From the UHGV virus genome UHGV-0174159: a stretch of DNA of 10,805 nucleotides. The stretch is one strand, 5' to 3'. Of this stretch, positions 203 through 8,116 are shown in pieces. Each line of letters starts with the position of its first letter. The stretch's first letter is position 1. The position numbers were made by a program, and so were the translations under genes. Source of the stretch: a virus. The notes under the pieces are model-generated. The model made no database searches. It had not been told where the DNA came from and saw nothing but the letters and a program-made list of their open reading frames with translations.

Positions 203-248
203 GTTTACATAGGGTTTTAGTTGTGATACTATTACCCTATCAACTACT
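203..248 (+). promoter_or_regulatory. T4 early-type promoter cassette, copy 1 (GTTTAC-N18-TACTAT-N6-ATCAACTACT)
   Basis: GTTTAC at 203-208, TACTAT at 227-232, conserved ATCAACTACT at 239-248; inverted repeat ATAGGGT (209-215) / ACCCTAT (234-240) brackets the -10. SD GAGGAG at 249-254 and ATG at 261 follow. Confidence 0.6.
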
Positions 249-260
249 GAGGAGAATAAA

Positions 261-446
261 ATGAAACGTTGTGAATTAATTCGAAATGTTGCTATTGCAA
301 TTTCTGCTTCCGCTTTTAGTTTTTCAATGTTTGTTGGATTTATATGCGGATTATTAACTACAGCAGAAAATGTGTTTTCACTTGTAGTAGCATTTTTAAT
401 TGGTTTAATCGCTATCGTTATGGATAAAATTTCTAAAGGTGAATAG
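261..446 (+). CDS. small hydrophobic protein (61 aa, probably two TM helices)
   Basis: ATG 6 nt after SD GAGGAG; translation is dominated by hydrophobic stretches (AIAISASAFSFSMFVGFICGLL and VFSLVVAFLIGLIAIV). Confidence 0.6.
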   Translation: MKRCELIRNVAIAISASAFSFSMFVGFICGLLTTAENVFSLVVAFLIGLIAIVMDKISKGE

Positions 447-447
447 A

Positions 448-831
448 ATGTATAAAGTGTATGCGGATTATCAGGCTAATCCATCTAAAAAGCCAAATTG
501 TCAAATTGGATGGGCTCATGATACTTTGCTTGAAGCAGTAGATGCTGCTCAAAAATTAGGATATAAATATGTAGAGATTGTTCAACTACCATCAGGAACA
601 GTTATTACTCTTGAAGAGTTCAATAACATTAAACCAAACTTTTTACTTTTTGCAGGTGATAATTATTATCCTCGTGGTGGATATGCTGATTTAATCGCGA
701 AAGCCGCTACTGAAGATGAACTTCGTGATATTATCAAAGAAAATGAAAACAAACCGATGTATGGTTTCAATCGCTTTGATTGGTGGCAAATTGTAAATGC
801 CCATACTCATACTATTGTTGATGAAGGCTAA
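448..831 (+). CDS. hypothetical protein (127 aa)
   Basis: ORF-track ORF 439-831 begins at a GTG; the first ATG is at 448, 8 nt after AAGGTG. Tightly packed after the previous stop (TAG 444-446). Confidence 0.6.
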   Translation: MYKVYADYQANPSKKPNCQIGWAHDTLLEAVDAAQKLGYKYVEIVQLPSGTVITLEEFNNIKPNFLLFAGDNYYPRGGYADLIAKAATEDELRDIIKENENKPMYGFNRFDWWQIVNAHTHTIVDEG

Positions 832-833
832 TA

Positions 834-1139
834 ATGATTCTTTATGCGAAAGTATCGTCTATTGAAAATGGATATAAATATGATCAAGATGCGGCTAAAG
901 CCTTGATTGATGATTATGGCATTTTAACATGTTTTGAAGTTGAAAAGGTTTACATTGACCGTTCATCTTCTCAAGTTAAATTAGTGAAGGAAGACCGTAA
1001 ATTTAACACAGTTAACTTTGATTTCTTTATTGAAACGGAAAAAGGTCCTCTTGAATATGATATTTTCAAGAATCCTTTGGGTCTTGAATGTATTAAATAT
1101 ACTTACATTAATATGGTGAGCAAATGTATATTCGTTTAG
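834..1139 (+). CDS. hypothetical protein (101 aa)
   Basis: ATG at 834 lies 2 nt after the upstream stop (TAATAATG); continuous ORF. Confidence 0.55.
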   Translation: MILYAKVSSIENGYKYDQDAAKALIDDYGILTCFEVEKVYIDRSSSQVKLVKEDRKFNTVNFDFFIETEKGPLEYDIFKNPLGLECIKYTYINMVSKCIFV

Positions 1140-1639
1140 GTAGCACAATTCCTAAGGGTTACGTAATTGATGTCACTACCTGGGAAAATGATGGTGATAA
1201 CTATAAAACCAAAACACTGTTTGGCGTAGAAGAGCATGAGCTCCAACAGTTTAAATATCTCTTAAAGAAGTTTAAGAGTCGTCATTCTAGTACCAAAGCT
1301 GAACATTATTGTGGTAATACACTATTCAGCGATTGCTCATCTATTATCTATGAATACTTGGTTGAAGGACTGTTCTCTGATCAGCTCACCCCGGAATTCA
1401 TTAAAAAGGTCTTTGATATTGAAGTTGACCTTGGTGATAAATCTGAAGAAGACGAAGCCCGCGTATTCGACTTGTTCCATGAGAATGGATATTTGGTATC
1501 AGAAGGTCTCATTAATATTCTTGGTTATGCTTCTGAATACTATGATTACTATTTCTTGCGTGTAGTTGAACGTGTTGAATTCGCTTATATTGAAGAAGAA
1601 ATCGTTTTGCCAACTGTTAAAATGATTGATTTGCTTTAA
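1124..1639 (+). CDS. hypothetical acidic protein (171 aa)
   Basis: ATG at 1124 preceded by GGTGAG; overlaps the upstream gene by 16 nt; ORF track. Confidence 0.6.
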   Translation: MYIRLGSTIPKGYVIDVTTWENDGDNYKTKTLFGVEEHELQQFKYLLKKFKSRHSSTKAEHYCGNTLFSDCSSIIYEYLVEGLFSDQLTPEFIKKVFDIEVDLGDKSEEDEARVFDLFHENGYLVSEGLINILGYASEYYDYYFLRVVERVEFAYIEEEIVLPTVKMIDLL

Positions 1640-1725
1640 GAAATATTTGTTATTATTAACTCATACCGCACTGATTAATACCCTCTATCATCAAGGGTTC
1701 TTGTTTGAGAGCCTTTGTTAATAAT

Positions 1726-1798
1726 TGGGAATTAGCCAAGTTGGTAAGGCACTGGATTTTGATTCCAGGATGCAAAGGTTCGAGTCCTTTATTCCCAG
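1726..1798 (+). tRNA. tRNA-Gln (anticodon TTG), CCA not encoded
   Basis: Acceptor TGGGAAT/ATTCCCA; anticodon stem CTGGA/TCCAG with loop TTTTGAT; T-arm AAAGG-TTCGAGT-CCTTT. Folded by hand. Confidence 0.85.
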
Positions 1799-6344: not shown

Positions 6345-6829
6345 TTTTAAAAACTCGCTGGTATGATTTAGATGATGGGGATGATGGCATTTCAGTTGAT
6401 AGAGTTGACTGGAATGGCTGTTCCGAAGATATGAAAAATTTGCTGATTAGGGAGTTTAGAATGGGATATCAACCAGTTAAGCCATCTACTGCAACAGATG
6501 ATAAATTCGTGTGTATTCATAATGGTCGCGCTAAATTAACGAACACTGATTGGTTCACAGATAAGATTATGATTCTGTGGTATATTATTAGTTTTCCTGT
6601 GACATCATTTGTATTTTGCTTCTTTGGAGAAAGTCCAGTAGACAGAACGGGAGATTGGATTATTTTAACCATACTTGTTAATATTTTTACAGCAGCAATA
6701 TTATCTGGGATATGGTACACGTTCATTGAAATGCCATGGCGTTTACGTAGGCAGCAAAAGATTTTTGATGAAAAGAAATATACTCAAAATTTAAATAATT
6801 TTATCACCGAATGCAGGAAATTAAAATGA
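6341..6829 (+). CDS. membrane protein, paralog C with N-terminal extension (162 aa)
   Basis: ATGA start/stop overlap with paralog B; two hydrophobic segments in the C-terminal half; tail ends NFITECRKLK. Confidence 0.65.
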   Translation: MILKTRWYDLDDGDDGISVDRVDWNGCSEDMKNLLIREFRMGYQPVKPSTATDDKFVCIHNGRAKLTNTDWFTDKIMILWYIISFPVTSFVFCFFGESPVDRTGDWIILTILVNIFTAAILSGIWYTFIEMPWRLRRQQKIFDEKKYTQNLNNFITECRKLK

Positions 6830-7266
6830 AAACATTATCAGCTGGTATTATCTTTATGACAGAAGATAAAGATTTATTCATGGGACGGGTTACTGGTTCT
6901 CGTAAGCCTGGAATGATGGCACATCGCTGGGATATTCCAAAAGGCCGTGTAGAAAATTCTGATTTGAGCGCACTAGATGCAGCACGAAGAGAATGCTTAG
7001 AAGAGACCGGTTTTAGCAATTATAATCCAGACCTTCTAGAAGACCTAGGTGTATTTAAATATTCTAGTAATAAAGACTTACAGCTGTTTTATTATACGAT
7101 TCCAGTAGAGCATGAGATGTTTAGAAATTGCCCATGCGAGTCTTATTTTGAAAATAAAGATGGTGTTATGATTCCAGAGATGGATGCTTTTGCTCTTATT
7201 CCTCGTACTCAGTGGCAATATGTGATGGGTCCTTCACTTTACCGAATAATGAACAGCCTCTTTTAA
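6826..7266 (+). CDS. nudE: Nudix hydrolase (T4 NudE / e.1-like)
   Basis: Nudix box GRVENSDLSALDAARRECLEETGF; immediately upstream of lysozyme as in T4. ATG at 6826 (ATGA overlap, AGGA 8 nt upstream) preferred over the ORF-track ATG at 6811. Confidence 0.85.
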   Translation: MKTLSAGIIFMTEDKDLFMGRVTGSRKPGMMAHRWDIPKGRVENSDLSALDAARRECLEETGFSNYNPDLLEDLGVFKYSSNKDLQLFYYTIPVEHEMFRNCPCESYFENKDGVMIPEMDAFALIPRTQWQYVMGPSLYRIMNSLF

Positions 7267-7269
7267 TTT

Positions 7270-7289
7270 ATAAATACCTTCTATAAATA
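7270..7289 (+). promoter_or_regulatory. two T4 late-promoter motifs (TATAAATA at 7270-7277 and 7282-7289) upstream of e
   Basis: Exact matches to the T4 late -10 consensus TATAAATA, 14-26 nt upstream of the e start codon. Confidence 0.7.
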
Positions 7290-7302
7290 CTTAGGAGGTA
7301 TT
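7273..7302 (+). promoter_or_regulatory. SD-sequestering hairpin for lysozyme translation control
   Basis: AATACCTTCTA (7273-7283) pairs with TAGGAGGTATT (7292-7302) over 11 bp (one G-U), burying the SD 1 nt before the ATG; the loop holds the late-promoter motif, the arrangement described for T4 gene e. Confidence 0.7.
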
Positions 7303-7791
7303 ATGAATATATTTGAAATGTTACGTATAGATGAAGGTCTTAGACTTAAAATCTATAAAGACACCGAAGGCTATTACACTATTGGCATTGGTCATTTGCT
7401 TACCAAAAGTCCATCACTTAGTGTTGCCAAATCTGAATTAGATAAAGCTATTGGACGTAATTGCAATGGTGACATTAACATAGATGAGGCTGAAAAACTC
7501 TTCAATCAGGATGTTGATGCTGCTGTTCGCGGAATTCTGAGAAATGCTAAATTAAAACCAGTTTATGATTCTCTTGATGCTGTTCGCCGCTGCGCATTGA
7601 TTAATATGGTTTTCCAAATGGGAGAAACCGGCGTGGCAGGATTTACTAATTCTTTACGTATGCTCCAACAAAAACGCTGGGATGAAGCAGCAGTAAATCT
7701 AGCCCAATCTAAATGGTATCGTCAGACACCTAATCGCGCGAAACGCGTAATCTCAACATTTAAAACAGGAACTTGGAAAGCGTATATATGA
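7303..7791 (+). CDS. e: endolysin, T4 lysozyme (muramidase)
   Basis: Translation [37 protein letters not shown]… is near-identical to T4 lysozyme as I recall it; catalytic Glu11, Asp20 and Thr26 are present; 162 aa. Confidence 0.97.
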
Positions 7792-8069
7792 AAACATATA
7801 GTGAATTTTTATCAGAATCTATTCTTAACGAAGCTACTGACACATTTGCAACTAAGCTAGGTGCAGCTTTGGTTGAAGCTGAAAGTCTATTAGCACGTAT
7901 TTCTGAACTTGCTAGTAAGATAGATACTCGCAAATTTGAACGTACCAGCGATATCGTTAAGCTTGAAGCCTTGTTGCGTATGTGCGATAAACCAGAAGAA
8001 ATCGCTAAGAACGGCTCGCTAATGAAACAACGTCTTGAAAAATATATTTCAGGCGCTTCAGAAAAATAG
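7788..8069 (+). CDS. internal-protein-like capsid protein with CTS (93 aa)
   Basis: ATG at 7788 overlaps the lysozyme stop (ATGA); N-terminus [10 protein letters not shown]|SILNE|A matches the internal-protein CTS with L-x-E motifs. ORF-track start 7773 is a TTG. Confidence 0.75.
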
Positions 8070-8070
8070 T

Positions 8071-8116
8071 GTTTACTTCCTCCAAGGACTTTGATACTAT
8101 ACATTCATCAACTACT
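8071..8116 (+). promoter_or_regulatory. T4 early-type promoter cassette, copy 3, upstream of denV
   Basis: GTTTAC 8071-8076 (2 nt after the TAG stop), TACTAT 8095-8100, ATCAACTACT 8107-8116. Confidence 0.6.

Follow-up and report, generated by a model that had tools for sequence, protein, structure and literature searches.

Three probable T4-type early promoter cassettes in a Tequatrovirus genome, their part in module exchange, and a predicted spacer-Shine-Dalgarno hairpin at denV

Right after injection of phage DNA, T4 early promoters (Pe) are bound by the host RNA polymerase holoenzyme through four promoter elements, as is established for this textbook class, and catalogues of these promoters were reportedly compiled by Liebig and Rueger in 1989 and by Miller et al. 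in 2003. They have been described as UP/-35/TGn/-10 "uber" promoters with additional consensus regions (Hinton review, PMC2988021), with GTTTAC at -36 to -31 (Nolan et al., PMC1524935) and with the T4/PST consensus TTTACW-N17-TAYWAT (Comeau et al., PMC4122927). Middle promoters carry, instead of the -35, a MotA box, (a/t)(a/t)(a/t)TGCTTtA, centred at -30 (PMC2988021, PMC1524935). Repeated early-promoter cassettes have also been linked with recombination: Arbiol et al. (2010) reported shuffling mediated by early-promoter/stem-loop elements called PeSLs, together with mini-circles, in RB49/phi1 (PMC2839356), and Comeau et al. (2014) extended PeSLs to the T4/PST pair (PMC4122927). Arbiol et al. 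also mention analogous T4-early-promoter-based elements seen by Repoila et al. (1994) at the two hypervariable T-even internal protein (IP) loci (PMC2839356). Finally, the ribosome-binding sites of T4 e, soc, 49 and I-TevI are sequestered in long read-through RNAs, and RNAs made from the proximal late promoters do not contain the 5' arm of the helix (PMC3014915). Here we describe UHGV virus genome UHGV-0174159, a stretch of 10,805 nucleotides (the window), in which a cassette of about 46 bp occurs three times. We consider it highly probable that these copies are early promoters of the T4 type, dependent on sigma-70, which serve trna.4, e.8 and denV in a Tequatrovirus genome; their activity and timing are predicted from the sequence.

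The original prediction had proposed three cassettes of identical geometry. We found that GTTTAC-N18-TACTAT-N6-ATCAACTACT occurs with no mismatch at 203-248 (copy 1), 3586-3631 (copy 2) and 8071-8116 (copy 3), all on the plus strand, which also carries the promoter parts, leaders, hairpins, terminators, crossover block and driven genes described below. An alignment of the three regions confirmed the shared geometry. No further site in the window came within three mismatches of this pattern of 22 specified bases, and none of 200 dinucleotide-preserving shuffles of the window contained a match, with 0 expected by chance. In copy 1 the -35 lies at 203-208, the -10 TACTAT at 227-232 and ATCAACTACT at 239-248, with a predicted +1 at A239. 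The corresponding positions are 3586-3591, 3610-3615, 3622-3631 and A3622 in copy 2, and 8071-8076, 8095-8100, 8107-8116 and A8107 in copy 3. GTTTAC is therefore exact at -36 to -31 in all three copies, and TACTAT follows it at the fixed distance of 18 nt, which equals 17 bp after TTTACN. The alignment further revealed an invariant TGn extended -10, missed by the original prediction, with TG three bases 5' of TACTAT, at 224-226 (TGa), 3607-3609 (TGg) and 8092-8094 (TGa), equivalent to -15 to -13. A promoter scan that listed copies 1 and 2 likewise recorded the TG in both. The 25 nt 5' of the -35 have an A+T fraction of 0.80 in copy 1, 0.88 in copy 2 and 0.64 in copy 3; the last value equals the window average, in a region that is coding though it contains AAAAATA runs. 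Copies 1 and 2 have in common TTTCACAAA 5' of the -35 and the 13-mer TATCAACTACTGA, and copy 3 begins 1 nt past the stop codon (8067-8069) of the upstream internal head protein gene. Two more early-type promoters, which lack ATCAACTACT and had also been missed, were found in the window, a fourth at 3923-3952 before e.7 (GTTTAC-N18-TATTAT) and a fifth at 4312-4341 before e.6 (GTTTAC-N18-TATAAT; 11/12 match, the best in the window).

The identification as early promoters is carried by comparison with T4. Several hundred genomes of T4-like coliphages (Tequatrovirus) are 94-96% identical to the window, which is syntenic with T4 58-76 kb when read in the direction of early transcription. Every cassette stands directly 5' of an open reading frame (ORF), with a Shine-Dalgarno (SD) sequence of the GGAG type in between. 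Gene identities were taken from PHROG matches, and those of IP genes also from their common MKTYxEF capsid-targeting N-termini. On this basis, copy 1 would drive trna.4 (261-446; phrog_1692, E 6e-35; T4 synteny), copy 2 e.8 (3659-3922; phrog_2678, E 3e-56; T4 synteny) and copy 3 denV, the gene for endonuclease V (8128-8544; phrog_1183, E 7e-63). In T4 the cassette was found 5' of trna.4, e.8 and denV, the three promoters there lying at about 73536, 70660 and 65378, and all three sites of the window are co-oriented with and 5' of early genes and align to the T4 sites. Copy 1 differs from the T4 trna.4 promoter by one spacer base over the 46-bp cassette, and is also present in RB32, SHBML-50-1 and Klebsiella phage JD18. 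Copy 2 belongs to a T4 promoter sub-family of about 80 bp (27080, 55384, 70696, 146875, 163673 and 167086), and the T4 denV promoter reads ATCAACTACA, with a 17-nt spacer. For phage Lutter, the deposited annotation has a "promoter" at the orthologous e.8 and denV sites; the copies of the T4 records NC_000866 and AF158101 that were used carry no annotated promoter features, one misc_feature naming Pe133295 being usable. In T4, primer extension revealed denV mRNA in RNA sampled 3 min into the infection (Durand et al. 2006, PMC1702504). The orthologous T4 cassettes and the fit to the published UP/-35 GTTTAC/TGn/-10 definition thus uphold, at the level of sequence, the designation as early promoters made by the original prediction. 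Right after DNA injection, the host holoenzyme would bind the UP region through the alpha C-terminal domains (clear in copies 1 and 2), the -35 (G)TTTAC(A/T) through sigma region 4, the TGn through sigma region 3 and the -10 TACTAT through sigma region 2, across the 17-bp spacer from TTTACN to TACTAT.

The T4 genome, assembled whole, was scanned for GTTTAC-N17/18-TAnnAT, and about 30 early-strand intergenic sites fitted, of which 29 promoters were used for a consensus. This consensus reads GTTTACAt..TGTGgTAcTATA.aaCT, followed from +1 by ATCaAcTA. The C at -10 in the window copies is the majority base in the T4 early promoters (15/29), and the start region shows A at +1 in 24, T at +2 in 24, C at +3 in 18, A at +5 in 20, T at +7 in 19 and A at +8 in 20 of the 29. 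TACTAT-N6-ATCAACTACT occurs exactly at five T4 sites (27080, 70696, 73572, 163673 and 167086) and nearly so at about six more. The consensus of the 29 T4 promoters therefore indicates that ATCAACTACT is the family-wide consensus of the initial transcribed region, and not a peculiarity of the window. The proposal that the conserved block marks the start of the transcript fits the T4 convention, since the A of ATCAACTACT is the seventh base after the -10: in T4 "Pe133295" the GTTTAC starts at 133331, and 133331 minus 36 gives 133295, the position equivalent to this A. Transcription should thus start at positions 239, 3622 and 8107, as judged from these sequence matches. Literature searches for the literal ATCAACTACT returned unrelated primer sequences only, and a search for mapping of T4 transcription starts by RNA sequencing gave nothing usable.

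Starts at these three positions would yield leaders of 22, 37 and 21 nt that are poor in G and essentially unstructured and that end in an SD of the GGAG type; in the 37-nt leader of copy 2 the GGAG is at 3649-3652. The predicted folds of the two leaders tested were -0.5 and -1.2 kcal/mol, the denV leader (8107-8134) giving -0.5. The RegB/S1 endoribonuclease consensus GGAGRAYARAA is found in the SD regions of early genes (PMC3014915; Durand 2006, PMC1702504). The trna.4 SD GGAGAATAAAA at 251-261 matches this consensus perfectly, so that cleavage is predicted there, and the e.8 leader GGAGAACGAAA departs from it at one position. The denV site does not fit the consensus, and neither does the T4 denV site, which is RegB-resistant in vivo. 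In the window the motif is recognised by its letters and lies 3' of the cassette proper.

The original prediction had further suggested that the cassettes could act as recombination sites for module shuffling. This suggestion was supported by an exact 44-bp repeat around the Ip9-Ip7 module of RB32 and by a clustering of homology breakpoints at the cassettes, as examined in spread samples of 45 database matches (relatives) per locus. At copy 3, 22 of the 45 sampled records begin their homology at 8068-8072, that is, at the G of GTTTAC, and their downstream identity is only about 84%. At copy 1, 34/45 begin at 185-251, with 12 at 185, just past the ipI stop, and 6 exactly at 223. In Klebsiella phages of another genus, homology to the window is confined to about 190-292, with 92% identity. 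An exact direct repeat of 44 bp, GTGATACTATTACCCTATCAACTACTGAGGAGAATAAAATGAAA, encloses the Ip9-Ip7 module of RB32. It is identical to window 223-266, which comprises TGn, -10, discriminator, ATCAACTACT, SD and ATGAAA; the depositors of RB32 themselves annotate a "43 bp direct repeat". The upstream repeat copy of RB32 retains the trna.4-type -35 and spacer, now 5' of Ip9, which it would drive, and the downstream copy joins an IP-type spacer to the trna.4-type -10 and leader. The repeat explains the homology break at 223, and the hybrid make-up of its copies indicates a crossover inside the cassette, 223-266 being the crossover zone. Of the evidence gathered, the RB32 repeat and the breaks at 223 alone place a crossover within a cassette. 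In phage Lutter, a promoter, a 54-codon ORF and another promoter (266 bp; L091 1269-1534) replace window 3923-3967, between e.8 and e.7, the exchanged stretch beginning with the G of GTTTAC and reaching as far as the e.7 leader, where the window has the single e.7 promoter.

T4 recombines at homologies of 2-10 bp (PMC9391042). With dozens of near-identical, co-oriented promoter copies lying between small dispensable genes, the highly active homologous recombination of T4 would occasionally take place within the copies, and modules of promoter plus ORF, especially those with internal protein genes, would be inserted, deleted or swapped. Module shuffling is a by-product of the repeats and not a dedicated function, and earlier papers have reported that such promoters link recombining modules at these very loci (PMC2839356, PMC4122927). 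Phage G4498, whose homology ends at 8136, was considered as another case of cassette-mediated exchange and rejected, this end being an internal denV deletion. In this phage (L094 1173-1345, equivalent to window 8071-8544), cassette 3 is intact and is followed by a short denV remnant, ATGACCCGTCCGAAGCGTCCATTGCGATAA, so that the promoter now points toward the next internal protein gene.

We found that the spacers differ, as the original prediction had stated, but that they are not free sequence, since gene-specific hairpin arms lie within them. In copy 3, the spacer stretch TTCCTCCAAG (8077-8086) is the exact reverse complement of CTTGGAGGAA (8115-8124), which includes the denV SD GGAG (8118-8121), and the two form a hairpin at 8077-8124 with a perfect stem of 10 bp. 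Because the spacer of copy 3 complements the denV ribosome-binding site, the differences among the spacers are not arbitrary. The hairpin RNA has a predicted energy of -17.8 kcal/mol (z -4.2; 0/200 shuffles), and the T4 denV allele, with other arms, TCTCCTGTAG/CTACAGGAGA, gave -18.0 kcal/mol (z -4.3). For an analysis of covariation, 80 denV loci were taken from IMG/VR and 34 distinct alleles were tested. These 34 alleles showed at least 10 different classes of arm sequence, and in T4-like denV loci the partner of the SD was always 5' of the predicted +1, in the spacer or in the -10/discriminator. Pairing of each promoter with its own leader averaged -13.95 kcal/mol, as compared to -8.92 +/- 0.49 for permuted combinations (0/5000).

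The predicted +1 at 8107 falls in the hairpin loop, so that transcripts from copy 3 would lack the 5' arm. Read-through RNA from the late genes e and IP would hide the denV SD, and RNA from the early promoter would expose it. Late promoter motifs are present at 7269 and 7282 (gene e), and the terminator scan found no plus-strand terminator between them and 8071. From these features we predict a translational masking of the denV SD in late read-through RNA. The gene denV is not among the cases of sequestered ribosome-binding sites in PMC3014915, nor did it appear as such in the literature searches made, for which the older T4 literature lay largely out of range. The spacer-SD hairpin of denV may modestly extend, in a way open to experiment, a control mechanism already known in T4, and is possibly new.

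Over 30 T4 early promoters the pairing with the SD was weaker, -9.28 versus -8.00 +/- 0.42 kcal/mol (15/5000), and the effect was carried by ndd.4, nrdC.9, regB, denV and the promoter at 8218. At NC_000866 62797 (regB), 53943 (nrdC.9), 166807 (ndd.4) and 8218, the spacers are complementary to the SD of their own gene, with duplexes of -17 to -24 kcal/mol, each exceeding all or nearly all mismatched leaders. We lean slightly toward the view that a subset of promoters (denV, and T4 regB, nrdC.9, ndd.4 and 8218) hides an anti-SD arm in the spacer, which would limit translation to transcripts from their own early promoter. Pairing of the spacer with the discriminator was likewise promoter-specific over 29 T4 early promoters (-3.55 versus -1.72 +/- 0.27; 0/5000). 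In copy 1, an inverted repeat at 209-240 (ATAGGGT 209-215, ACCCTAT 234-240) pairs the spacer with the discriminator around the -10 in the loop (-14.2 kcal/mol, z -2.3), a hairpin that could form only in RNA reading through from ipI. The same arrangement, again with the -10 in the loop, was seen in the e.7 promoter (3923-3952), where the arms are AGGCTCAT/ATGAGCCT (-15.7 kcal/mol, z -3.5), and in the e.6 promoter (4312-4341), where a hairpin with the arms GGGAGTA/TACTCCC spans the -10 (-15.3 kcal/mol, z -2.3).

Could the cassettes be something other than early promoters? A chance likeness of A/T-rich intergenic sequence has nothing to commend it beyond the A/T-richness of the genome (64% A+T); it is refuted by the shuffles, not one of which gave even a single match, and by the retention of the sites at orthologous positions in T4 and many relatives, and its probability is practically nil. 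MotA/AsiA-dependent middle promoters would share the sigma-70 -10 and the TGn, which about half of middle promoters have (PMC2988021), but GTTTAC at -36 to -31 without TGCTT is found in all three copies. A MotA-dependent middle promoter was therefore rejected, the MotA box TGCTTtA being absent from each copy, and we regard this reading as very improbable. It is somewhat less improbable, yet still quite doubtful, that the cassettes are dedicated mobile or recombination elements of the PeSL type, kept for shuffling or mini-circles and not for transcription. They do border hypervariable IP modules, RB32 has its exact 44-bp repeat, and there are the mini-circles of RB49/phi1 (PMC2839356) and the PeSLs of T4/PST (PMC4122927) to point to. 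However, the conserved positions are exactly the RNA-polymerase contacts (-35, TGn, -10 and +1), at fixed spacing, while the rest varies, a pattern that indicates selection for promoter function. Moreover, copies 1 and 3 are without an upstream terminator stem-loop, the same promoters are kept 5' of conserved genes in distant genera (JD18), and Arbiol et al. (2010) call the elements of T-even IP loci analogues, not homologues, of PeSLs (PMC2839356). The absence from 557 phage records of the product to be expected from exchange between copies 1 and 2, as given below, tells against such elements as well.

A further alternative concerns ATCAACTACT itself, which might be a separate element beyond polymerase binding, either an RNA leader element (a translation enhancer, a site of S1 loading or a determinant of 5'-end stability) or a DNA site for Alt stimulation or early shut-off. 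All ten of its bases are the same in the three copies despite differing spacers and discriminators, conservation over T4 promoters extends from -2 to +8, more than sigma-70 needs, the leaders are G-poor and weakly folded as described above, and reviews call the mechanism of early shut-off and the determinants of Alt unknown (PMC2988021, PMC3014915). On the other hand, the block is absent from 20/29 T4 early promoters and from the e.7 and e.6 promoters of the window, more distant denV promoters start otherwise (ACAAAC-type), and the identity is partly due to common descent or gene conversion in the promoter sub-family of about 80 bp. No factor or structure was linked with the block, and the positive evidence for this alternative consists of its conservation. 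Taken together, these points make a separate element unlikely, though less so than the alternatives above. A particular form of it, in which the block from -2 to +10 (CT followed by ATCAACTACT) would be the cis target of the abrupt shut-off of early promoters 2-3 min into infection or of promoter-specific stimulation by Alt ADP-ribosylation, is suggested by conservation beyond the needs of sigma-70 recognition and is in our view a long shot.

Several points weigh against the account that we prefer, namely early promoters that serve in passing as points of exchange and, at denV, carry an arm masking the SD. Breaks at the upstream edge of the cassettes (those of copy 3, and those at 185 for copy 1) would be equally expected from simple replacement of the upstream gene. 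The predicted product of a deletion between copies 1 and 2, ipI fused to e.8, was found in 0/557 matching phage records. Copy 2 as the boundary of the neighbouring indel was rejected: in phages without ORF 2944-3417 (T4 and T6), homology starts again at 3422, where a repeated terminator hairpin lies and not the promoter; the indel is thus bounded by terminator repeats. The SD-masking hairpin is strong for copy 3 only; for copy 2 it was rejected (-13.2 kcal/mol, z -1.0, with 7/34 mismatched leaders as good), and the hairpin of copy 1 does not reach its own SD.

The terminator repeats just mentioned consist of an intrinsic-terminator hairpin with T-run at 3425-3453 (hairpin 3425-3448), 137 nt 5' of copy 2, and of its near-exact direct repeat at 2870-2898 (hairpin 2870-2893). 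The pair brackets a module of late promoter and IP-like ORF at 2900-3417, and the same features are annotated in Lutter. The late promoter motif, TATAAATA, lies at 2900-2907, 5' of ORF 2944-3417 (phrog_2280), which has an IP-type capsid-targeting N-terminus, MKSYAQFLNEA. With late promoter motif, ORF and terminator hairpin, ORF 2944-3417 forms a self-contained late module within 2867-3453.

As for the other genes of the window, the 3' end of ipI (1-183) precedes copy 1, trna.3 and trna.2 follow trna.4, and ten tRNA genes lie at 1726-2553, a cluster without the segB homing-endonuclease gene inside. The tRNAs are those for Gln, Leu, Gly, Pro, Ser, Thr, Met, Tyr, Asn and Arg, as compared with eight tRNAs in T4. 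The Tyr tRNA (2308-2394) was called by ARAGORN only, and Rfam at its gathering threshold gave nine tRNAs. In the Rfam scan tRNAs alone reached threshold, with no known RNA family overlapping the cassettes. Downstream of e.8 come e.7 through e.2 and then nudE, followed by e (7303-7791) and the internal head protein gene (7788-8069). Between denV and vs.8, where T4 has no such gene, sits an additional internal virion protein gene (8554-9027; phrog_3155, N-terminus MKTYQEFITEA), and directly 5' of it no promoter motif of early or late type was noticed. It is followed by vs.8, vs.7 and vs.6. Over 185 bp, the 3' half of vs.6 (10232-10416; ORF 10054-10416) shares 97.8% DNA identity with the 3' end of grcA, the E. 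coli gene for the autonomous glycyl radical cofactor, a match that holds in all 5426 complete E. coli genomes. This segment has a GC fraction of about 0.5, versus about 0.3 nearby. In vs.6, a host-derived segment is thus joined to a phage N-terminus, and T4 vs.6 is already annotated as GrcA-like.

These results fix three, in fact five, early transcription units in the window for annotation. Exchange at the cassettes explains why adjacent internal protein genes differ among otherwise near-identical phages. Internal protein genes encode injected anti-restriction proteins and thereby help set host range, which makes crossover points such as 223-266 useful for engineering or tracing host-range modules. 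No new principle emerges, since both the promoter class and the recombination-linker role are textbook matter or published. What may be new, and this alone, is that gene-specific hairpin arms are encoded in the "variable" promoter spacers; if this is true, the spacer arm of denV should gate translation to transcripts from the early promoter.

As compared with the PeSLs of RB49/phi1, PST/T4 and nt-1/KVP40 (PMC2839356, PMC4122927), the window likewise has, in hyperplastic regions, early-promoter cassettes that recur between small accessory ORFs. In both, the SD and start codon stand at the 3' end of a strong early promoter, variable ORFs lie between copies, and cassettes bound indels or replacements, with crossovers between the -10 and the ATG, as in the 44-bp repeat of RB32. 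The T4/PST consensus TTTACW-N17-TAYWAT fits all three copies, whereas in PeSLs of the RB49 type the promoter is close to the consensus TTGACA/TATAAT and is directly preceded by a G/C-rich terminator stem-loop. No terminator lies upstream of copies 1 and 3, and that of copy 2 is 137 nt away; the terminator scan of the window gave plus-strand hairpins only at 2870 and 3425. The stem-loops of the window lie instead inside the promoter, pairing the spacer with the discriminator or with the SD. Mini-circles were seen in RB49/phi1, whereas here sequence alone was read. At jumbo-phage denV loci (IMG/VR L027, L029, L030 and L039; contigs of about 350 kb), a G/C-rich terminator hairpin was noted about 70-30 nt 5' of denV, with the -35 TTGAC inside its stem (e.g. 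GGGTTGACTTCGGTCAGCCCTTTTTGCTATAAT), a composite of terminator and promoter resembling the RB49 PeSLs.

Copy 3 resembles e, soc, 49 and I-TevI in that the SD lies in a stable helix whose 5' arm is upstream of the start of the proximal promoter. In the known cases, where masking is described in the literature cited above, the proximal promoters are late, so that translation is delayed until late; the promoter of copy 3 is early, and the predicted effect would be reversed, with translation early and masking, foreseen here from the sequence, in late read-through RNA. Anti-SD spacer arms would thus be the temporal mirror image of the gene e mechanism, of which we found no description in the literature searched. 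To the T4 early promoters, finally, the three cassettes correspond in the UP region (copies 1 and 2), in GTTTAC at -36 to -31, the 17-bp spacer and the TGn, in a -10 of the form TA(C/T)(T/A)AT, in the A start with its ATC.. initial sequence, and in their orientation and place 5' of early genes. There is no difference of substance, except that the denV copy is another allele than that of T4, unlike it in spacer, discriminator and leader and alike in the consensus elements alone.

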